A DNA stretch of 36,516 nt from Basidiobolus ranarum (taxonomy: Eukaryota). A program made the position numbers and the translations under genes. Below, one piece after another: positions 1,501 through 36,516 of the stretch (its first letter is position 1; every line of letters starts with the position of its first letter). Under the pieces are notes generated by a model. The model was given only the letters and a program-made list of their open reading frames with translations, ran no database searches and was not told the DNA's origin. The stretch is from the NCBI GenBank assembly GCA_040143965.1, contig JASJQH010000058.1, positions 1 through 36,516 on the forward strand. The letters run 5' to 3'.

Positions 1501-4500
1501 TTCAGTATTTTAAATCACCTATCATTCCATAAACTATCGGGTTTTCATGGTTGGCTGAGTAACTTGAAGTGGCTTGCTGGCAAGAACCGCCAAGTATGCA
1601 AACTGGTTCTTGATCGAAGACATGCTATAATCAAACCTAGATCCATACCTTTCACAGCTTAATCTATTAACCTAAAAAATTCGCATGCATGCATGATAGG
1701 TAATTTATGCTCTACTCAGCAAGGGGTGTTGCTAAATTACAACCTACTCCTTGTTACGTAATAATGCTGAACACTCTCTTCATGAATCGAGCCTACCAGC
1801 CCATGATGAAATGGGCACTTGTTAAGCCACTCGGGCTGTGCGTGGGGGAATGGTCTCGTAATGGCAAATAGCCGAAAACTGTTGCTTGTTGGCAATATAA
1901 ATAGCAATATCAAAGAGACATATATTTAAGGGATGCAAAGACTTCATTACGTCAACCTATTAAGGTTTCGCATCTATCGATATTTGGTAGTATGGGTGGT
2001 GAGAGCATGGTGAATATAGCTAGAGTAGTATTACCAAAGTAAAACATGAAAACCGTTGTGCTGAATAAAGGAAACGGAAGTCAACATCCCCTTTTGAATT
2101 CGAGTTTACCCAATGGTACTATGAAGAATGCACATATTTACCATATGAGTTCACTATACATGAGGCCACTATTTAGGCTGAAAAAAGCATGGAAAACTTG
2201 GAGGAAAAGAAATGGATAATTCGCTCAACTCAAATAGGCTTGGGAATTACTAATTAAACTCTATAAGGGGAATAAGCTAAGGAACTCTCAATTGATACTG
2301 CTTAAACTCGAGATTAGAATGGTACATCCACGTGTTTGGGGATTAAAAGCGCCTTTGGCTACGATACTCTGTATACACAAGTGGATGAAGTCATTCCATT
2401 GGTTTGAGACAGTGGTTTAAGATTCTATTCCTGTATTTCCAATCGTTGCTACTGGTCGTTCAAGGATTATAATTCAAAACCATTCGGACACCGCTTCACT
2501 AAACAGCCATGTAGGCATCAAATCTCCGACGCACAAGAAAAGTACTCACCTATCAGTAGGGCACCCTAGGTATGACGGACATTTGTATATGGAAGAAAGT
2601 CGAAGAAAATGAAAATCTCAAGGTAGAAAGTATACAGTTACCATGCTATTGCGAGGATTCCTGGGGAAACTAAGCACGTAGACAATATATCATTTATTCA
2701 TGGAGAAGAAGCATCAGTATTTAGTATTATTGTAGAAATATCTTAAACTAAATGGTTTCGTTTTATTCCCAGCACTTGCGATTCTCTACACTCAGCGATC
2801 CAACTGTGGTTTGATAGGGAGCGAGGATCTTCGGGTGCCAAACCTTCAGATGTCTGTATTGTATAACGTTTCATAACAATAACACAAAGAATCGCGAATC
2901 AAATATTGTGGTTAGGTACATCTAACCCATTTAAGGAGTCATATACTCTGATAAGAGGGAAGGTACTTTCAAAGGTCAATATCCTGATCTTAGTACTGCA
3001 AGGTCTATTGTCTTTATTATCACTTCCTTTATACACCTAGTTATTTCGTATCTTGGTTAGTTAATATCTGCTATTTATATATCATTCGGTTCAAAATCAG
3101 AACACACATTTTGTATATATGAATAATCCAAAAATTAGCAAATCTGAACTTGAAATTTTAAAGTTAACTAAAGCAATATACAGCTTCTATATATTTTGAA
3201 CACATTCACATGGTTCTGCTTTGTCCTACCTTCAAATTTGTAAAAACCCTACTCTAATCGTTGAATTACACTCGAGGAACATTTTCAGCAATGTAATAGA
3301 TAAAGCTTGTTTGTACTTCTTTCAAGTACAGAGCTTTTCTATACCAACTAATACCCTAAAGATTAAATAAGGGAATGAGCAGACTTTCAATTGTATTTTG
3401 TCAGCTGGACTATCAGTCATGTATCCAGACTCTATTCAGTATGTGAAAACATTTATGCATAAAAAACCTATGACATCTCTTAAGATCTTTGAGCATACAT
3501 AATGAAGGGTGTTTTGTGTCATTCCTTCTAATTTGTAATGAATTGATAAAAATTTTATTCAATTGATATAATCATTAACGAAGCTGAGGGGAAGATAGCA
3601 TATGAAGTAGTAACAATGTTAGTCAATGTAAATTTCCCAAAGTTATTAGTGTTTGGGATGAATTGCAAGCGTTTAGGATAATTTGAAGAATGTATTCTAA
3701 ATTGTATTGAATTGTAAGATGGTTTTTATAAGTTGTAAAGAGCAATAGCAACAGGACAGTGTTCCTAAGTCATAAACATTAAGCATGATAAACATGAATG
3801 CAAATATGTAGGTGCTTAATTTAAATACTTCAACAGTTCTAAGGACACCGTAAGTTGTAATAGTAAAAACCCGATCTGGAGCATAAAAATCCCAGTCTCC
3901 ACTTGATTGTGTCTGTAATGGTATGTTATAAAACATGGATTCTTTTGAAGCTGTATTTGTTCATTGAGTATCGAATCAAGCACTACATTATGGTTATATA
4001 GTAATGTCTACTGAAAATGGCAAAAATGGTAAATAAATCCAATAATTGAAGATTAAAGTGAAATGAATATATTTTTGATCTTCCACACATAATATAATAA
4101 GGGCAGTTGAACGTTGTTGCCATTCCTGATGCTATTTAGAGACAAATAAATCCAACATTTGCCTTGCATCATGATTGTTTTCTCTTTCGATCGTATGTTG
4201 CAAAAATATCGCAGAAGGAGCAATTATAGGTGATCTGACTCGGCTTTTTAAAGAAGTGTATTTCTAAGGTATTTCAATGCATCTTAATGGGATCCACTTA
4301 ATCATGTAGTCCGGGATATTTGCTGAAAAGACGACAACAGACAAGGAACGATAAAGAAAAGGAGAAAGATTACTTAAAAAAATAGAAATCGCTGGTTTTA
4401 TTGTATGGATAAAACGAATGAAGAGCTGCTTTACAAATTACCCAGCACAATTCAAAAGCCGAAGAGAAAAAGATAAAGTAGAGAGACTTTGGAGTTCAGA

Positions 4501-9892: not shown

Positions 9893-11285
9893 ATGAGCTT
9901 TATTAAAGTTATACACTCTCAACCGGAGTACCAACAACTCTTAAACTCCACTGCGCCTACCAAACTGGTACTATGCTTTTCCATTGACTTTTTATGTTGA
10001 AGATATCATTTACACCTATTCTATTCTAGGTTGTTGTAGACTTCACTGCCAAATGTAAAACCTCGTATTATTATTTATGATACTTTAGACGATTCGAGTT
10101 AATATTTCCTTTTTTTAAGGGTGTCAGCCATGTCAAATCATCGCACCCATCTTTAACAATCTCAGCTCAAAATATAGAAATGTAATTTTTGCTAAAGTTG
10201 ATGTTGATGATGTTCAGGTAAGTTTTCTTCCTCCACGTCAAAACTCCTCACTAGGTTTTTAACTGTTTGGGACGATGATGATTTTTAGGAAGTTGCTCAA
10301 GCTGCTGGAGTTAGTTCTATGTATGTTTTCAAATTTTACCTGTTGGTCACAAGAAACCATTTTTCTTACTAATCATGTGTACTCCTGTATTTAGGCCAAC
10401 TTTCCAAGTATTTCCTCATAGTTATATATCGTTGAATGTTTTGTACCATGGTGTTGATTTCTCTCCTGATATTCATAGCTCTTCAAGAATAAGGCCAAGA
10501 TCGCCGAGTTAAAAGGGGCTAATCCTCAACAACTGGAAGCACTTATCATTGAACACCAAGGAGAACCAGAAGAAGATTCTAATCATATCAATATCCCCGG
10601 ACATGTACGTAACATAAAAAGTATTGATGGTGAATATTTTAGCAATTACTAAAAACACTTAATGTAGTCGGACATCACGGAGTTTATCACACTCAACCAA
10701 CTGGAGTGTCTTAACCAAAAATCTGACCATAGTGTGCGCAATATATTTAAAAAGGATGCTGCTTACTTGGAAAGTGATGTTGATGAACAATTGATTATTG
10801 CCGTTTCTTTCAACCAACCAGTTAAACTTCATTCTATCAAGTTGATCGCACCTAAAGGTAATGTGATCAGGGTTTTCAAAGGATCTTCAAATGGGTTTCA
10901 ATCCACTAATAATCCCATCGAAATGTACAGAGTTCGCACCTAAAACCATCAAATTATTCTGTAACCGATTGACCCTTGGTTTCGACGAGGCAGATGATAT
11001 TCAAGAAACTCAAATGTTGGAGTTGACCGAAGAGGATTACGAAGAAAACGCAGTGATTCCCTTACGTTTTGTTAAATTCCAAAACGTCTCCAGTGTTATT
11101 GTAAGTCAATATTTCATGGAATTTCTCGTAAGCTATCCATTCTAACTAGATACCACTTAATCTAGCTATTCATCGAAGATAATCTTGGTGAGGAGGAGAC
11201 CACTAAAATACAGCAATTGGTGTTTGTTGGTTCTCCCATCGAAACTACCAAGATGGGGGATTTAAAGAATCAACACGCCCACTGA
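9893..11285 (+). CDS. TXNL1: Thioredoxin-like protein 1 (N-terminal thioredoxin + C-terminal PITH domain), 9 exons
   Basis: Spliced: MSFIKVIH..VVVDFTAKWCQPCQIIAPIF..FAKVDVD..SMPTFQLFKN..GANPQQLE.. then PITH: QLECLNQ..YLESDVDEQLII..FNQPVKLHSIK..PKTIKLF..IPLRFVKFQNVSSVILFIEDNLGEEETTKIQQLVFVGSP; ATG 9893, TGA 11283-11285. Confidence 0.93.
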
Positions 11286-12029
11286 GCATTTGTTCTACCT
11301 ACGCTTGTCCACTCTTATTCTATATAATAAATCGATCTTTGGCCCCGGTAGCTTTATCGTTCAAAATTACAATGTCAATTCCAAGCTCTTCTGTTCAGCC
11401 TTTAAATCATTGGTACACTCTTGGAATCGAACACAATCCAGGGTCAAGGTGTCTTTTTGGTTGGCCATGAATGGGGAGGTGACTTTACATGTTGAAACAA
11501 GGTTAGAGTGTTTGACATCTATACTACCTTATTGATCAATATACATGGTTGCCGAGACATTGTGTATATATCATATATTTTCGAATATGTCAATATAATG
11601 AGACAATGGTAGTGGTTCTTCATGGATCCAATTTCAAATTCATTACGTAAAAATAGCCCGGAGGAAGCACCATTTCACACAAAGACCATTACAGGTTTTA
11701 GATGATGTGAGGACCTCAAGGGTAATGACTTTGTATCATATTCACCCAGTTCAAATATTATACTCGCATTACATTCATACATGGGAACTAGTATTAACAG
11801 CACATTAGATTACTGTTATCTACAAGTTTTGTAACATGGTTGCGTTGGTGTTAAGTGTGGATCTAATGTTTCGCTGACTTCTATAGACTTGAAACACATA
11901 TAAATGATTGGTTGGGAAAACTAGTTCTCAAATCCAACATGAGAAGTTGGTTTTTCTAATATTTATTTGGATTTGAGAAACAAAAATGGTTTTAGGTTCT
12001 CTTCCGGTCTTTTGGATCATTGTGTACCT

Positions 12030-22937: not shown

Positions 22938-25131
22938 TTACTCGATTACTTCCAGTCTAGGTCTCTTTCTATGATCATCCTCGTCATAAGAATAATCTGC
23001 AGGACGTACATTCGAGTTGGTGGCAAACATTATCGAAGGAATAATAGCGGCACCTTGATTCATAGACGCATCATTCGGAATAGCAATTCCAGCCATCATT
23101 GATAGGTTATATCCGTTGTTTTGACCCATGTTCATGACGGGGATAGCAGAATAAGAACTCATAGACATAGGAGCAGAGGTAGAAGCTTGCGACGAGCTAC
23201 CCTCTTCATGGTCATTCAAGAAGTTTCCATGCATCAATGAATTGGTAAGAGCGGGATAAGGACTGGGATTTCGACCAATATGGCCCATATCTCTTATTGT
23301 ACGCAGATGCATACAGTATTTCTCGAGCATTCCGTTGAGACCAGCTTTTGAAAAGGGTTTGGCAAGAATATCATTCATACCGTTGGCCAAATAGGTCATA
23401 CAGTCGTTCTCTGTTGTGTTCGAGGTCATGGAGATAATAGGTGTGATTGCATCAAATTGGCGAATTCTGGTGGTAGCAGAAACTCCATCTAAATTAGGCA
23501 TCACAATATCCTTAAAAACACAAGAATCTATCTTTAGCAAAATTGTAAAACAATCAAGTGCAGCTTATTATTATTTACCATTAACACAATATCGTATTTT
23601 TCTAGGTTCATTTTGTTGACAGCAGCAACACCATCTGTGGCGACATCAAATGAGCATCCAAAAATTTGAAGAAGCTTGGTGCTAAGTCTTCTGCAGACGG
23701 CGTCATCTTCCACCAGAAGAACCTTAGGCGGAGTGGCCCAATTAGGCGTAAATGATCCCTTGCGAAGTTGGGTGTTCTCAGTATTGCTTTTGATTTGAGT
23801 ATTGCTACCATTACTGTTATTCAAGTTATTCCCCACGGAGCCATTGATCAAACCATTATTGTCCATGGAATTGGTTCCAAAGGGAAATGATTTGTCATTC
23901 ATGTTATCGCGATTTTCAAGTTGATTGAGGGATATTTCTAAACTCTCAAGATTGGGCTGGCCGAACCCACCTTCGTTGTTACTGTATCCACCAAGATCAG
24001 TGTTGTTCATGTTGACATTATTTATATCGTCAGAATTGTTACCAAACATACCCCCCACATGGTTCATCATAGGAACTGCAAACTGTGACAAAGATGTGCT
24101 GGCAAACTCTTGAAGAGATTGCGCCCTCTTAGAAAAATCATCAACTTGGTTGAGTGAGACTTTCGACAATTCATTGTAGGAATTCAAAAGTTTCAGCATG
24201 TCAGCGGAAGAACTTGTGTTGGAAAATGGGGCCCCATAACCAGAGTTTTCACTGACATTTTTGTGCTCTCGATTACGATCTAGAAGGGAAATAGGTTAAC
24301 TAAATTTTTACTATAAATAGAGGGAGTTCAGATGCTTACTTGAATCTTGATTAAGAACATATTGAACAACATTTTGTAGTAGTTGGTCTTGAGCTATAAT
24401 GCTTTTTCGGAAGCTTAGAATTTCTTCCACCATAACCTGATAATTTTTGCTCATCGATTGAAGATAATTGCCCATATCGCTTTGCAACTTAGAAACGGAA
24501 TTAACTTGTCCTTGTAGATCATCGGCAACCATTCTTATGTCTTCGGGTAACATACTGGTTCCAATACCGCTAATGCCAGGCTTGTTTTTGTTAGGGATTT
24601 TTCGCTAAAGAATCTGATCAGTCCTATTCATAACATACATACTTGGTGTGATGCGTTTCACATACCTTAATTGATTCTAACATCTCACACTTGTTGTGTT
24701 GAAAACTAGGATGTTGAAATTCCCAAGCCTAAAAAGTTTATAAGGTAAGTAAGTGGATTGCTTTAACCAGGTACCTTTTAGTGGAAAAATGAAATAGGAA
24801 ATCTTCGTACATGTTCTCCATAAGGTTTACTAGAGTCATCGGTATTCTTGATCTTATGAAAATCGTATTTGTTTAATTGACGAACAAAACTCGCAAAGTT
24901 ACTATGCTTAAAGTGCTTTGGAAGTATCGTTTTGGCGAATTCGTTTGGCTCTTTCACTACAAAAGTATCTCCGTTTAATCCCCAGGCTACAATATGGCCG
25001 TAGGTTGTATCTTCAAGCATTCTGATATAATATTAAGCATCAATACACTAATGCTTTGTGAAGTAACTCTAATAAATGTAGTACCTATATAGCTTCTTTA
25101 CGAAGTCAGGAACACCCGGAGCGGCTGACAT
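22938..25131 (-). CDS. SKN7: Skn7/Prr1-type transcription factor (HSF DNA-binding domain + coiled coil + response-regulator receiver), 6 exons
   Basis: MSAAPGVPDFVKKLYRMLED..FKHSNFASFVRQLNKYDFHK..AWEFQHPSF; receiver KVLLVEDDAVCRRLSTKLLQIFGC..YDIVLM|DIVMPNLDGVSAT..PIISMTSN..GMNDILAKPF, with the phosphoacceptor Asp intact. Confidence 0.95.
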
Positions 25132-27399: not shown

Positions 27400-28960
27400 A
27401 GCCACTGGCCCTCAGGACATGACTAAGGTGTTGGCGATTGAATGCAGTTAAGTGATAACGGCTTAAAATGGATGAAAACCAACAGTTTCTTGCAATGATG
27501 ACACATGGTTTCACTTGGCATTTGGACTTTGATCGAAGTGATTGGCTTAATTGAGAGCATCTAAAGAGGCACATCTTGCCCTGCACTGCTGCTTGTAAGA
27601 AAGCACCTAGTGTTGATCTGAAATGATATTCTTAATTAAAAACCATCAGAATGAGACAATTGTTAATCCTACGTGACATTAGTCCATTATACCTAAGTGT
27701 GAGCAGATAGGTCCCAGAGTGAATGGTGTCAGTAGTTGGGTTATACATATTGTTTGTACTCTGGCAATTATTGTGTATCACCACACAACACAGTTTGCTT
27801 GTAACTTGGTTGACTCGGCAGTAGTGCTCACATTAGAAGTTTGGAGTAAGTAGGATGCTTCATTTCTGAAGATGCTAATTCTTGATAGCCAGACTGAATT
27901 TATGTAGCTAGAAGAGTATGGTCGCTACCAGCATCCATTTTCTTTTGAAATCCAAAATATGAAGTCCAGGCTAATACAAGTGCTCAAGGGTCAAGGACGC
28001 TAATTGCTCTAGAACTGAAGGGTAGGTTTCAGAGTTTGGTGAGCAATCTTATACTATTGCTTTCAAAATCCACCACTGAATGTTTTCTTTACCTATGCAA
28101 CAAAGGTTGTGATGCAACTCATATCTATAGACAAAAATAGCCAAGAAATTGGAAGGGTGTATCACGTGCTTTCAAAGCTAAGTTGCTCAAACTGAGTTCA
28201 TATCTAGGTATTTCACCTTGAATGTCTAATAGTAGCAATGGGTAATGTTCAGAGTTTGAACATTGGATACTTTATCCTAGTTCATCAAATGGCTACTAGA
28301 ATAATAGGTCTTAAAATTACTCGAGCTTGAAAGATGTTGTATGCTGGATAGCCTGAACTTCATTAGAAAGGCATTACTTCTGCTTGATATGTTATTTCAT
28401 CACAAAGGTGTTGTACTTACTTGGTATTGGCTGATTTCAAATCCTCTTGAAATTTTATAGATGTTCATTCAACACTTGATATTTAATTGTGATTGAGATA
28501 GTCCTAAGTCTTCCCCTTGGCTATTTTTTACATGTATTGCAGGTTGTTCCTGTCAATCTAAGCAGAGCAGTGGAAGGTAGTCTAGATATGTCTACTTAAC
28601 CAGCATATTATGGGTTAGTAGGCTTACAGTAAAACAGCATTTCTGTTGAAGTACACAAAGGCTTTAGCATATTTCAGGCCAATTACACCATGGCCTTGTG
28701 ACAGAACTCGTGTGAAGCTGTTAACAATACCTCATTCAGCATCATTGAGTCACATGATCACGGCTTGAATGTGTTTGGTTCGAGTCGATTGAGTTTTCTT
28801 TAGTAACACCATATTTGTTTGACTTGATTCAGCACTTGACTAATTACCGCTCATTTCATTGTGATACCCAGGGAGTGAGGCAGAGAAACCTTTTGGGGTA
28901 CGGCCTCCTCAGTTTCATGTGTGTTTCTGTCAGTACATGTCATACGGGGCAGTGATAAAT
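27400..28960 (-). mobile_element. Highly decayed non-LTR (LINE-type) reverse transcriptase relic
   Basis: Minus-strand fragments in RT order and roughly correct spacing: LKYAKAFVYFNR (~28678-28640; cf. LDFxKAFDxVxR), QGEDL (~28520), AF-xNE (~28370; decayed FADD) and PFQFLGY (~28157-28137). The segment is CpG-poor. Boundaries approximate. Confidence 0.45.
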
Positions 28961-29582
28961 TAAAATTGGATTGTTGACGGATTGGCTGATACTACTTGAG
29001 CAGCAAAAACTCGGCATTTGGAGGCTCCTACAAACACTGATCTCATGGTAGGTTGTTGGAAATGCCAACAGAGATCAAACATTACCTCTTGTGGAAACCC
29101 CTTTTTTAGAAGGGATCTAAGAAACCTTGGGCTGAGTCCTCAGTGGGATGGATAATGGCTGGTGAATTGATTCTATTTCGTACTGTGATTACGACGATAG
29201 TGATTTTTATATGCTTTTTTTGACTGTCGTTTTATGCATTTCCTATATTGGTAGATAAATTCCGAACAGTGCTATTTATGGAATTAAATTGAATACAAAT
29301 CCTAAATGCCAATGATGAGTTGCGATGGATTTGATATAGTTTTCACTTCATTTGGTGATTTGTTTTCCAAGCTTTCTAACGAAACAATAAAGAAAATAAG
29401 GGAAAACCAACAATTATAGTACGGCGAAAAAAGAACATAAAAAAATAACCAAGCCAAACTGTAAAGACAAATAACAAAAGAATATATGAGTTGCGAAACA
29501 ATAAGAAAGCGAAAAAATTCGGGATTTCATGGTGTAATGAATGAGCGTGTGAGATATTGAGAAATATGCTAAAGTTCTAGAG

Positions 29583-30723
29583 CTACTTTGGCGTGCTTGA
29601 ATGCGGTGAAGGGTACTGTGGAGGTTTGGGGGCACCACTCGGATTCTCCCCACCATTCGTCCAGTAATTAGGCTGAGCCATATATTGATTGTTGGGTGCA
29701 GCGTAGGAGCCCATAGCTGGTTGATTGTACTGTGGATACTGCTGATTACTGATGTAATTACCAACGTTTCCCATAGAAACCTGACCTGGCATTTGTCCAG
29801 GGAGACCTCCATATTGATGTCCATAATTCATATTTGCGAGCGAAGGATTATATCCTTGTGTAGATGACTGCTGTTGCAGATTCCGCACATTCTAAATCGA
29901 AAGAATTAGCAAATTCCGCTTATGATAAGAAATATAGTTGCCCATACCTGTCTGTCATTTCCATATAAACTCCCAGAGTTAGCATCGACACCAGATGAGG
30001 TATCACCACCGTATCCGGGTGGTGTCTGTTGACTCTGTACCTGCGAAGGTAATGACTGAGGTTGTTGTGCTTGCTGACGCTGAAGTTTCGGCGAAGGAAT
30101 TTGCGTTGAGATTGGCCCTTGGGGCTGAGCAGATTGGGGTATAACGGTGGTTTGCTGAGTAGGCTGTGTCTATATCAAGTTAAGCAACGTATATGATTTC
30201 ATCAGCTTCTATACATTGTATGCCAATAATACATTTAAATTGACTTACAGTTGACTCTGCAGTATCTTTAGATGGTGCAGAATCGGGAGCATTCAGACAG
30301 GATTGAATCAAGTTTTTACCTTCAGGCTGAGTGACTAAAGGCTGTAGTTTTGGAGTGGTGAACGTATACACTAGTCCAGTTTCAGAAACTACCAGCAAAA
30401 GGACCTGGGTTCCAGTAAGCGTACTAAGCTCGTAAGCCTACCAATAATACTAATATTTTAATAAGAGAGTAGAAAATTGAAATCCAAAATTTGACTACCT
30501 TTTTCATGATTCCTGCTTTGCGCTTACTAAAAGTAATGTGTCTACGATTTTTGTCGTCAATGTATTCAATCTTAATCTTACGACGACCGGAGCGCTTTTC
30601 ATTTTTGGGGATGCTGTCATCAGAATCGGCATCTTCTTCCTCTTCAAATTCACGCTTTGTCCCGCGAGTTTCATCTTTTGTAGTTAGCCCTTGTGAGATA
30701 TTAGGGGATTCATTACGATTCAT
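29583..30723 (-). CDS. MCM1: MADS-box transcription factor, Mcm1/SRF type, 4 exons
   Basis: GRRKIKIEYIDDKNRRHITFSKRKAGIMKK|AYELSTLTGTQVLLLVVSETGLVYTFTTPKLQPLVTQPEGKNLIQSCLNAPD, followed by a Q/P/Y/N-rich C-terminal region; stop at 29583. Confidence 0.96.
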
Positions 30724-33439: not shown

Positions 33440-33870
33440 TTTCCTATTTTGGTATATCATGGACTAAAATGCACTTATCTCACCATTAAAGCTTCTGTTC
33501 CCAACATCTCAGTTTATACAGTCAATATGCTGGTGCAAGGAAGAACAAACCTTAATACTAAGAGGAATATGGCCTGTTTTGGATACATGCATGGCAATCA
33601 GAATGGTAAAGTTAGATTAGTGACGAAGAAAGATTTCGACTAAGCTGATGATTTGGTGGTGTATCAGATGGCACAGGCCCTACTCTCAGGCTTGGTGAGC
33701 TGCTGAATATTCGGACAATTGGTGAAGCTTTACTGGAATGATCGAGCCAAAGAGCTTTTCATAATGTCGCTCAGGCGCTTATGACACTCACTGTGGATCG
33801 TCACGAGTAGCTTGGGGAGTCAATAATACAAGATTGAGTTGTGGTTGCGGACTGGGAACAAGGTAATCAC
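33440..33870 (+). mobile_element. Decayed non-LTR RT fragment
   Basis: HGLK..CT/ISPL..LF (~33458-33500; cf. GLxQGCxLSPxLF), then FD*ADDLVV (33635-33661; YADD with Tyr->TAA) and QALLSGL..FGQLVKLYWN..K. Confidence 0.35.
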
Positions 33871-33884
33871 ATTTTAGAGTTAGG

Positions 33885-34138
33885 GGGGATGAAAAGTGCC
33901 AGGTGGTATGGACTTTATTTAGCATATATACTAATCTAAACCAAGTGACCCTCTAGACATCAATCTCTTAAGATATTGTGACAATAATGGATCATATCCA
34001 TACTTAACTTGATGACCAACGTAATCATGTTCTGAGGATGCAAATATAGTGTTGAGGCAAAGGTGATATGCAGAAAGGAAGGTATTCAGTACAAACAAAA
34101 TGAATAATAGGACAAAAGCCTGCAATAATAGGGATCAA
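33885..34138 (-). mobile_element. Short copy (3' end only) of the adjacent non-LTR retroelement
   Basis: About 255 bp that aligns collinearly with 34152-34407 and encodes the same C-terminus (DYVGHQVKYGYDPLLSQYLKRLMS vs DYIGHQVKHGYDPVLTQHLKRLMS), plus the same 3'UTR. Confidence 0.85.
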
Positions 34139-34151
34139 GGGCTTAGGAGGT

Positions 34152-35286
34152 GGGGATGAAAAGCACTAGGTGGTGTGGACTTTATTTAGTTTATATACTA
34201 GTCTAAACAAAGTGACAATCAAGACATCAATCTTTTAAGATGCTGTGTCAAAACTGGATCATATCCATGCTTAACTTGATGACCAATGTAATCCAGTTCT
34301 GAGGATGTAAACATAGGGTTAAGGAAAAAAGGTGGTAGGCAGAAAGGAAGATACTCAGTACAAACCAAATGGACAATAGGACAAAAACCTGCAATAATAG
34401 AGATCAAAAAAGGTGTCATGGAGGCAGTGCATTGCTTCCAAAGGTCTAGCTGAAAGTCTATAGCAACAATTTTGGGCTGTTTTGTTTAATGTAGTTGTAA
34501 AGCTAGTTCAGAAACAAGAGAGTTATCTTGTATCAGTTTCAGGCATACTAATGGATTTCTGCAATCATTTAGTTAGAGAAAAAATCTAGCCCTCAGTAGC
34601 ACTACTCTGATATGATATGTGAAGAATCCAAATGTTCCATTTAGAGCATGATCATAGGGAGTCTCAGGCAAGTCAAGCATCAGCAGCCTGAGGCAGTAGC
34701 TGATGAATCTAACAAGCTTAGAGTAGTCTCTTTGGTTCAGTGGGAGCAGATATACTCCATATTCCAGAACTGGTATCACATACTGCTTTAGAAGTGTTTG
34801 GCAACTATGATAAGGTGTATTGAGAGGTGTAACTGCAAGTAACTTGTGAACAGCCTATTTAGCTGAGATAATTCTAATTGATTGGTATTTTTTCATATCA
34901 ATGCCAGTTTGAGTGAATGGGAAGCCAAGATAGGTTGCATGGTTCATTTGAGAGAGCACAGTGTAATATAAGGGAATAGTACAACCAAGTGGAATTGTTT
35001 TAGCAATGGAAAGGTCCAAGTTATTTTCTGATAGATACCTCTGAATAGTAACTATAACCTGTTGAGGTGGAGAAGCAGAAACTCTGATATCATCAGCAAA
35101 TAAATTAAACAAAGATCCAGGAGACAAGCTGAGAAAAATCATTGAGAAATATTACAAAAAGCAGAGAGCCTAGCACAGAACCTTGCACTACACCATTTGG
35201 CACTGGGTACAAGCAGGAGGAGTGTTGTGCACCAACATACAAAGTTACTTAACATACAGCATATCTTTACAACTTGCATCAATATC
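34152..35286 (-). mobile_element. Non-LTR retrotransposon ORF2 remnant (RT C-terminal half + C-terminus + 3'UTR), pseudogenised
   Basis: YPVPNGVVQGSVLGSLLFVIFLND (35211-35140), LFADDI, LDLSIAKT, ATYLGFPF, YVIPVLEYG, a Cys/His cluster GFCPIVHLVCTEYLPFC, stop, and AATAAA at 34181-34186. Contains stops and frameshifts. Confidence 0.9.
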
Positions 35287-35755
35287 TGTTTAGTTAATCA
35301 TCATACTAACTAGTCACCAAACCTTATCTAGTGACCCTATCATGTGACTTATCACATTACTAACTATCTATTCTCTTATCCCTTCTATCAGATCATATGA
35401 CCAATCACATGATCATCATCCAAGTATTAGCCTCTGAGTCATATATCTAGATGTAAGTCCATATAAGTCACAAGATTCCCAACTAATGAGCTTGCACTGC
35501 AAAGACTTCAGCTGATGCATGACTTACTTATCTCTCTATCTATCTATCCAATCACATTGTCTATTATCAGAATTAGTCATCTATTATCTCAGTGCTGACT
35601 AATTCACTTTGCAATCAAAAAGTATAAATAAAGCTAACTGAATCTTATGATTTAGGATGTGTCTTAATAAATATAGGATCCTAACACTTCTCAGTGTTTC
35701 TCAGCAAATTCAATATTCCTCCCTCATTTCTATCTAAGCCTAGTATCCACAAGCA
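35287..35755 (+). mobile_element. Probable solo LTR interrupting the non-LTR element
   Basis: Starts TGTTT, ends ACAAGCA. Contains repeated CATGTG/CACATG boxes (CpG-decayed CACGTG), TATAAATA at ~35623 and a downstream AATAAA at ~35667. RT homology stops abruptly at its left edge. No clean TSD. Confidence 0.5.
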
Positions 35756-36254
35756 TCTAGAGAACACCAAGCCTAGCTGTCACAATAAGGAACTGGACAA
35801 GGGCTGGAAATAATAACAAGAGGCTAGAAGGCAGGAGAGTACTTGGGTGTAGACCACAAGACAAGACAAGACTGGACAAGGAAGATACATTGACAAGAAT
35901 CTTTATTGATAACTGGCATTGATCAGACTGAGGTCTGATCAAGGAATACATGGTGATTATATAGATATTGAAGGGTGAAACATAATATATTGAATGGGGA
36001 ATATACTATGGCAAGTTCAAGTGTCAGGATGTTTAGAACTACAAGAACCAATACAAAGAGGGATGATGTAAGGATAATCAGGTGACATTCCATGGAAGGT
36101 CTTGGTGGAAATACATCATGTGTGGGAGGACAAGATTGGTTAGGTTTCATGGATGGTTCCAAAGAACAAGACTTCCATATAAGGTAACCTGAATGAACTA
36201 ACACAAGATTGCCAAGAAGGGATGGCACAGCAAATATGATGTCATAATCTAATA

Positions 36255-36382
36255 GTTAGGGTATATAGATGTTCTGGTAAGGGTAAGGGAGGGTAAGGAT
36301 GAAAAGAGGGGGTCTGGGGGACGTAGTCCTCCCAGTATAAAAAGAAAGCAGGGGGTTTGGGGGATGGGTTAGGGTTAGGGGG
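36255..36382 (+). repeat. G-rich tract with telomeric GGGTTAGGGTTAGGG and variant TAAGGG repeats
   Basis: GTTAGGG (36255-61), GGTAAGGGTAAGGGAGGGTAAGG (36276-98), two AGGGGGTYTGGGGGA copies (36307-21, 36350-64) and GGGTTAGGGTTAGGG (36366-80). Confidence 0.8.
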
Positions 36383-36516
36383 ATGATAAACACCACAGGG
36401 TGTAGTATTTATTTAATAACTAGATAAACTACTATTAAACAAATAAGCCAATGTAGCATAATATGCTAACAACAAAAGTTGAAGTTAAAATATAAAGAAA
36501 ATAATAAAGTATGGAA
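36379..36516 (-). mobile_element. 3' terminus of a third, related element (runs off the window)
   Basis: GGGGATGATAAACACCACAGGGTGTAGTATTTATTTA aligns without gaps to the termini at 33885 and 34152 (GGGGATGAAAAGCACTAGGTGGTGTGGACTTTATTTA). Confidence 0.6.

Follow-up and report, generated by a model that had tools for sequence, protein, structure and literature searches.

The stretch of DNA analysed here (the window) comprises 36,516 nucleotides (nt) of contig JASJQH010000058.1 from Basidiobolus ranarum. It contains ordinary eukaryotic genes, namely DDX23, a NatB subunit, response-regulator domains and a MADS box, and it closes with a block of repeat DNA in which three copies of long interspersed nuclear elements (LINEs) lie in the same orientation, with their 3' ends facing the gene side (DDX23, NatB, MADS) and adjoining telomere-like sequence (Table 1). 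We consider it probable, at roughly 0.6, that this block is the decayed remainder of a head-to-tail cluster whose copies, truncated at their 5' ends, come from a Basidiobolus LINE family with TTAGGG telomere repeats as its integration site. The initial annotation, made from the sequence alone, had assigned the locus to an early-diverging fungus. This agrees with the DDX23 frame, which shares 97% identity with its counterpart in Basidiobolus meristosporus and only 79-80% with the next best matches (Glomeromycotina, Mucorales), and the host is therefore placed in Basidiobolus (Zoopagomycota), the frame representing a close species or else a paralogue.

The boundary between the two parts of the window is sharp. 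Left of position 33849 the DNA is ordinary genic sequence, and to the right lies repeat DNA with hardly any CpG. Position 33848 holds the last normal CpG, at most 26 nt from the first telomere-like junction, and the depletion extends from there to the end of the window. Given that CpG is almost gone to the right of 33848, the onset of the repeat block coincides exactly with the telomere-like tract. Between 34001 and 36500 the observed/expected ratio (o/e) of CpG amounts to 0.00-0.06 in each of five 500-nt bins, while 60 of the 68 earlier bins of this size range from 0.5 to 1.15. The eight low bins among the latter are 3001-4000 (0.36, 0.45), 10001-10500 (0.48), the boundary bin 11501-12000 (0.50), 27501-29000 (0.26, 0.14, 0.38) and 33501-34000 (0.44). 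GpC is not depleted in the block (o/e 0.51-1.30), and the loss of CpG looks like a methylation-driven decay that is restricted to repeat DNA.

Table 1. Features of the repeat block at the right-hand end of the window (positions within the 36,516-nt window)
Feature	Position	Strand	Remarks
CpG-depleted block	33849..36516	.	2 CpG in 2,668 nt, at 34020 and 36322
Telomere-like tract 1, TTAGAGTTAGGG	33874..33885	+	adjoins copy 1 3' end; last G run common to terminus
Copy 1, 254 nt, 5'-truncated	33885..34138	-	3' UTR and decayed ORF2 end; sense 3' end ...CTTTTCATCCCC
Junction 2, 13 nt, GGGCTTAGGAGGT	34139..34151	+	between copy 1 5' truncation point and copy 2 3' end
Copy 2 3' UTR, 67 nt	34152..34218	-	AATAAA 29 nt ahead of end; sense 3' end ...GCTTTTCATCCCC
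Copy 2 coding remnant	34219..35248	-	RT palm/thumb and C-terminal ORF2; corresponds to residues ~528-865 of relative P0002
Stretch X, origin unassigned, CpG-free, ~940 nt	35300..36240	.	adjoins copy 2 5' truncation point
G-rich degenerate telomere-like tract	36256..36380	+	TTAGGG at 36256; perfect GGGTTAGGGTTAGGG at 36366-36380
Copy 3, 3' end of a diverged related element	36379..36516	-	sense 3' end ...TTTATCATCCCCC; AATAAA 30 nt ahead of end
UTR, untranslated region; ORF, open reading frame; RT, reverse transcriptase.

The LINE copies and their relatives

Copies 1 and 2 are fragments of one LINE and thus repeats in the proper sense. They form the sole self-BLAST match in the window (33885-34138 versus 34152-34407, 85.5% over 256 columns), and in a global alignment 219 of 254 positions are identical (86%), with 21 transitions, 14 transversions and a Kimura two-parameter distance of 0.154. 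Copy 3, which is cut off by the window end after 138 nt, resembles them for only some 75 nt, counted from the terminus. The score of this anchored alignment, 42, was reached by none of 2000 shuffles (largest 27). Since the likeness is limited to this short distance, we take copy 3 to be a diverged relative from another subfamily.

The sense strand of the copies ends in ...UCAUCCCC, and AATAAA is found 29-30 nt ahead of the end in all three of them (33915-33920, 34182-34187 and 36409-36414, as TTTATT on the + strand). No A-run follows ...CATCCCC on the sense strand at any of the three copies, which bears out the earlier statement that poly(A) tails are missing; likewise, the sequences quoted in the initial annotation were all recovered at their positions. 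Reading the flanks by eye, with 5' borders that are imprecise, revealed no target-site duplication at the copies, including the unit of copy 1 plus copy 2.

In the coding remnant of copy 2, 35151-34219 on the minus strand forms one frame of 311 codons with three in-frame stops, and the piece 35248-35105 lies in another frame, owing to one frameshift near 35105-35151. The translation of the remnant contains VVQGSVLGS, LFADDIRV, ATYLGFPF and VIPVLEYG, in line with the LINE-type RT motifs named before; motifs past the RT such as VIPVLEYG we take to be LINE-like. Homology to the relatives described below spans 35248-34219 and none was detected farther right (tblastn), so copy 2 must be 5'-truncated near 35250-35295. 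It begins at about residue 528 of an ORF2 of about 890 amino acids (aa), and the copies are 5'-truncated and devoid of long terminal repeats (LTRs). In an alignment, the stop codon at 34219-34221 falls where the relatives P0002, P0003 and P0004 have their C-termini. This identifies positions 34218 to 34152, 67 nt in all, as the true 3' UTR and ...GCTTTTCATCCCC as the true end of the element.

A search with the 311-residue read-through of copy 2 among 1.84 billion representatives (HMMER) retrieved 18 proteins at E<=1e-3 and four at E<=1e-30. These four close relatives (P0001-P0004) are 40-48% identical to the RT fragment, and two of the four belong to B. meristosporus CBS 931.73. The full profile of the RT family RVT_1 is matched by P0002 and P0003 (79.6 and 87.2 bits; cut-off 29.6) and a part of it by P0001, which also passes the cut-off (40.7 bits); P0004 has no such match. 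The decayed sequence of the window itself is less amenable to profiles: the 311-residue read-through matched no Pfam family, even at E<=10, and the 47-aa piece reached 17.4 bits against RVT_1, which is under the cut-off. A word-index protein search with the read-through, directed at longer proteins, returned 975 candidates, none of them at E<=1e-3. Two further family members, P0148 (896 aa) and P0149 (821 aa), carry RVT_1 only according to their precomputed Pfam assignments. For ten more distant relatives, the clusters offered no informative names for a placement in a clade, and the protein atlas yielded solely 'hypothetical protein' clusters with RVT_1/Exo_endo_phos.

The gene model of P0001 (B. 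meristosporus ORX99946.1) consists of three partial ORF2 copies in a chain, in the order of an RT middle piece, a piece from the RT to the C-terminus and a piece from the RT middle to near the end. This suggests tandem truncated copies in B. meristosporus that are read through by the gene model.

Related loci were also sought in assembled contigs by pattern. The 27 matches in genome contigs and the 109 in viral contigs yielded no confirmed locus, and a degenerate pattern of the terminus had no match in genome contigs. The 89 matches in metagenome contigs led to one distant locus, L001, a 6,263-nt contig (GC 57%) whose first 104 nt recur exactly at its end. Because of this exact overlap, L001 represents a 6,159-nt unit arranged head to tail. 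The unit comprises an ORF1 (835 aa), an ORF2 with a complete endonuclease domain of the apurinic/apyrimidinic (APE) type followed by the RT and with a CX2C...H...C motif near its end, and a 3' UTR with AATAAA. Exactly between this 3' UTR and the next ORF1, at 1289-1300 and 12 nt downstream of AATAAA, the sense strand reads TTAGGGTTAGGG, i.e. (TTAGGG)2. The RT region of L001 is 27% identical to that of P0002 (local BLASTP), which is no closer than for other LINEs. A sequence search of PDB with the endonuclease domain of L001 gave nothing relevant.

The APE region lies outside the window copies, which are 5'-truncated, and has to be judged from relatives. In its first 143 residues, P0002 matches the C-terminal half only of Exo_endo_phos_2, at 27.5 bits versus a cut-off of 27.4. 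Three family members that cover this part were aligned with four LINE proteins that are more distant and have the APE domain in full; GD[L/F]N, SDH and a conserved D do not vary in this alignment. The N-terminal APE motifs (FNANGL, ETWL) are seen in L001, P0012, P0016 and P0020, but are unrecognisable in the three family members. The ORF2 ends about 250 residues past FADD, without a match to a restriction-enzyme-like (REL) endonuclease. On sequence grounds, the element is probably of the APE lineage, with a predicted ORF2 of about 890 aa in which an APE-type remnant precedes the RT.

The initial annotation had preferred a LINE to a Penelope-like element (PLE), and our results lead to the same choice. 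A PLE of the Athena/Coprina type would account for the polarity of the copies, given that the 3' ends of such elements carry reverse-complement telomere repeats in the same orientation (as set out in part of PMC8557442). However, the relatives match RVT_1, one of them with half an APE-type domain upstream, their best matches among solved structures are L1 ORF2p and R2, and neither a hammerhead ribozyme nor any other Rfam family reached the threshold in 33500-36516. The element is therefore classified as a LINE, and a PLE origin has next to no probability.

Telomere-like junctions and the route of integration

To assess the junctions, the 12 nt ahead of each terminus were compared, ungapped, with the best phase of (TTAGGG)n, the unit TTAGGG being assumed from fungi generally. 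At junction 1, TTAGAGTTAGGG (33874-33885) runs into GGGGATGAAAAG (33885-33896) with a score of 10/12, or 11/12 if the shared G is counted. At junction 3, GGGTTAGGGTTAGGG (36366-36380) runs into GGGGGATGATAAA (36378-36390) with a score of 12/12 and, over the longer tract, 15/15. At junction 2, GGGCTTAGGAGGT runs into GGGGATGAAAAG at 34152-34163, the same 12-mer as at junction 1, and reads GGG-C-TTAGG-AGGT, which may be described as one and a half units with an additional C. Telomere-like DNA had initially been reported at all three termini; it is upheld for copy 1 (10-11/12) and copy 3 (15/15), whereas copy 2 is weak (7/12) and the telomere-like nature of its junction, as judged from these few bases, is suggestive only.

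A score of at least 10/12 is attained by only 21 of the 73,008 12-mers of the window (both strands), mostly within these very tracts, which puts junctions 1 and 3 far beyond chance. By comparison, 5,366 of the 73,008 12-mers score at least 7/12. These figures also bear on the possibility that ordinary LINE fragments happen to lie beside interstitial telomere-like sequence, with no mechanistic link between the two. Other TTAGGG hexamers are scattered over the window (nine on the + strand) and one of the junctions is not significant, which would suit such a coincidence. Yet two junctions of at least 10/12 end exactly at homologous termini and have the same polarity, and with so few comparable 12-mers in the window we hold a coincidence to be very improbable.

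The junctions have several properties in common. The copies are joined at their 3' ends to 1-2.5 telomere units, and at all three junctions the cDNA strand continues the G-rich strand, in agreement with the single polarity noted before. Each junction contains a run of 4-6 G, in which the telomere-like sequence and the element have 1-3 bases in common. The tract ahead of copy 3 is more complex. It includes variant units (GTAAGGGTAAGGGAGGGTAAGG at 36277-36298), the sequence GGATGAAAAG at 36297-36306, which equals the first 10 nt of the terminus of copies 1 and 2, and GGGGGAT at 36359-36365, 7 nt that equal the first bases of the element terminus; Tandem Repeats Finder reported GGTAAG x4.2 and GGGTTA x2.5 for it. 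The two terminus fragments may be very short relics, resulting from abortive starts or extreme 5' truncations, and they are too short to serve as proof.

The arrangement of copies 1 and 2 bears most strongly on how the family may have arrived. They lie head to tail at a distance of 13 nt, and neither a second piece of copy 1 nor any RT sequence was found past copy 2 (self-BLAST, and tblastn with P0001-P0004). Since the rest of copy 1 is absent there, the pair is not a nested insertion. An untargeted insertion is improbable, because copy 2 would have had to hit within a few bases of the stump of copy 1. A non-nested pair only 13 nt apart therefore favours either the addition to a repeat-capped end or the insertion into a repeat tract.

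The same observation has to be set against an encoded tail, in which the RNA would end in a short and variable (CCCUAA)-like repeat, so that the element could insert anywhere and its flank would carry no information on the target. Tails consisting of (TAA)n or other microsatellites do occur in some LINEs. The tails of the window copies are indeed very short (11-15 nt) and degenerate, the tail of copy 1 directly adjoins unique, CpG-bearing DNA, and the 5' end of copy 2 is without a telomere repeat, all of which would suit an encoded tail. Against this stand the non-nested position of the 3' end of copy 2 next to the truncation point of copy 1, the onset of the repeat block exactly at the first junction, the interleaving of terminus fragments with telomere-variant units in 36277-36380, and the lack of a visible target-site duplication around copies 1 and 2 taken as a unit. 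Telomere-repeat-directed integration is thus favoured, at the probability given above, over an untargeted element with an encoded tail, which we regard as unlikely.

We hypothesize here that telomere-repeat-directed integration would proceed by pairing of the terminal C run of the RNA with the ...GGG-3'OH of the telomeric G strand, a step to which the 1-3 shared bases within the 4-6 G of the junctions fit. The primer end would be provided by an endonuclease nick in duplex repeats or by an exposed chromosome end. Reverse transcription would begin with the final 3' UTR base, and a poly(A) added after AAUAAA would for that reason be left uncopied. Recurring events of this kind would produce arrays with very short repeat tracts between the copies. 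The locus would then be a present or former chromosome end, which later decayed through CpG loss of the methylation type, and a counterpart of the MoTeR arrays and 'relics' discussed below.

A special case of telomere-repeat-directed integration, and the core of the initial annotation with its telomere-primed element, is priming without any endonuclease, from a telomeric G-overhang or a healed break. The element would in this way extend or heal chromosome ends, which is what endonuclease-deficient Athena/Coprina elements are described as doing. Such priming allows one polarity only, in which the cDNA continues the G strand, and this polarity is found in all copies. Moreover, the 3' ends point toward unique DNA, with only repeat DNA past the sharp boundary, the predicted proteins of the family are without the recognisable N-terminal half of the APE domain, and PLEs offer a precedent (in the portion of PMC8557442 that deals with them). 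However, the invariant APE residues suggest that the nuclease is retained, the N-terminus may just be missing from the predicted proteins, and nicked duplex repeats would yield the same three copies equally well. With APE motifs still present in the family, there is no need to invoke healing without an endonuclease. We see this special case as rather unlikely, and priming at natural chromosome ends is a candidate mechanism only.

A further step would be to see in this APE-lineage LINE a telomere element of Basidiobolus itself, whose C-run RNA would pair with the TTAGGG overhang and join natural or broken ends without the half-lost endonuclease, building the chromosome ends in alternation with telomerase. 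We find this doubtful. If true, an early-diverging fungus would have reinvented, independently and on the basis of a LINE, the habit of endonuclease-deficient PLEs and of Drosophila HeT-A/TART, and the strand used by a related lineage of the L001 type would be the opposite one, in the way that SART relates to TRAS.

Several points weigh against telomere-repeat-directed integration as such. The evidence base consists of three decayed copies in one window, and junction 2, with 7/12, is not significant when taken alone. The 5' end of copy 2 adjoins stretch X with no telomere repeat in between, and the window does not close with a telomere. In the open-access literature searched, no telomere repeat for Basidiobolus was found. 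The APE evidence is borderline, with P0002 just over the cut-off and the N-terminal half missing or unrecognisable in the predicted proteins. Finally, L001 has TTAGGG in its sense strand, a polarity opposite to that of the window copies; for this reason and in view of the 27% identity, it is only loosely supportive. It hints, as a single contig, that an association with telomere repeats may be commoner among such LINEs.

Comparison with telomere-targeting elements

The layout of the window is the same as that of the arrays and internal relics of MoTeR1 and MoTeR2 from Pyricularia (Magnaporthe) oryzae, fungal non-LTR elements that sit within TTAGGG telomeres. According to the relevant parts of two articles, adjacent MoTeR copies lie head to tail, and the TTAGGG tract between them ranges from half a unit to over 20 units; the relics are 5'-truncated 3' termini on a short telomere stretch, with a truncation point that, following end-joining, is often attached to unrelated DNA (PMC7367193, PMC8381367). 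MoTeR, FoTeR and Cnl1 are members of the CRE clade and have an REL endonuclease downstream of the RT (sections of PMC12857005 and PMC7367193). In contrast to these elements, which come from Dikarya, the Basidiobolus family comes from Zoopagomycota and has a putative APE-type remnant upstream of the RT. Because of this remnant and the lack of an REL domain, the family falls outside the definition of the CRE clade.

Elements with other endonucleases, or with none, were also considered. HeT-A, TART and TAHRE of Drosophila (Jockey clade) are LINEs that form head-to-tail terminal arrays with frequent 5' truncation. They replace the telomerase repeats and end in oligo(A), whereas the window copies are separated by short TTAGGG units. 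TRAS and SART end in poly(A), which the window copies do not have. Their opposite insertion orientations recall the relationship between the window family (sense CCCTAA) and L001 (sense TTAGGG). In Bombyx mori, TRAS and SART are telomeric-repeat-specific APE LINEs of the R1 clade with mutually opposite orientations (from a passage of PMC10088271). The endonuclease-deficient PLEs Athena and Coprina attach to G-rich telomeric overhangs by way of reverse-complement telomere repeats at their 3' ends, as part of PMC8557442 describes. Their polarity is the same as that of the window copies, but they have a PLE RT, no endonuclease and hammerhead ribozyme motifs, in contrast to the LINE-type RT of the window family, the APE motifs of its relatives and the absence of a ribozyme match in the region searched.

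A survey from 2023 lists, in the portion used here, SART/TRAS, GilM/GilT, Zepp, MoTeR1, Tx1-1_ACar and the Drosophila HTT elements as telomere-targeting non-LTR elements, in four clades (PMC10088271). Telomere-targeting retrotransposons have several origins and are already known in fungi and insects, while none is known to have been described for the fungal group of Basidiobolus. The open-access literature searched contained no paper that deals with the telomeres of Basidiobolus or with non-LTR elements associated with telomeres in Mucoromycota or Zoopagomycota. The described fungal telomere-targeting elements all have an REL endonuclease and belong to the CRE clade and to Dikarya, as far as the pertinent section of PMC12857005 goes. 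If telomere-repeat-directed integration is true for the window copies, the telomere habit would have originated independently once more, in an APE-lineage family of Zoopagomycota without poly(A), and the pairing of a 3'-terminal C run with GGG-3'OH would be a recurring solution. Relics of this kind could also serve as markers of former chromosome ends and thereby help to reconstruct rearrangements in the large, duplicated genomes of Basidiobolus.

Other features of the window

A conserved hairpin in the 3' UTR was considered and is not claimed here, as the consensus fold of the three sequences is weak (-4.75 kcal/mol, with 2 of 16 pairs compensated). Stretch X, between copy 2 and the G-rich tract, has no similarity to the LINE family (tblastn with the relatives); Pfam recognised none of its 10 ORFs at E<=1, and no usable match came from the protein atlas. 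The only Rfam hit in 33500-36516, a sub-threshold one to TeloSII_ncR30 in 35351-35450 on the + strand (18.8 bits versus a gathering score of 86, E 0.28), was treated as chance.

A second island of low CpG is located at 27501-28700 (o/e 0.14-0.38). Six-frame translation of this island gave no Pfam match, and neither LINE similarity nor a telomere-like motif was noted in it; it may be another old repeat. Two ordinary host genes have divided domains. A response-regulator receiver domain is split between two neighbouring frames at 22938-24295 on the minus strand, and a MADS/SRF-type box at about 30400-30560, likewise on the minus strand, is divided by an apparent intron. This MADS box is the final recognisable gene of the window and lies about 3.3 kb ahead of the repeat block.

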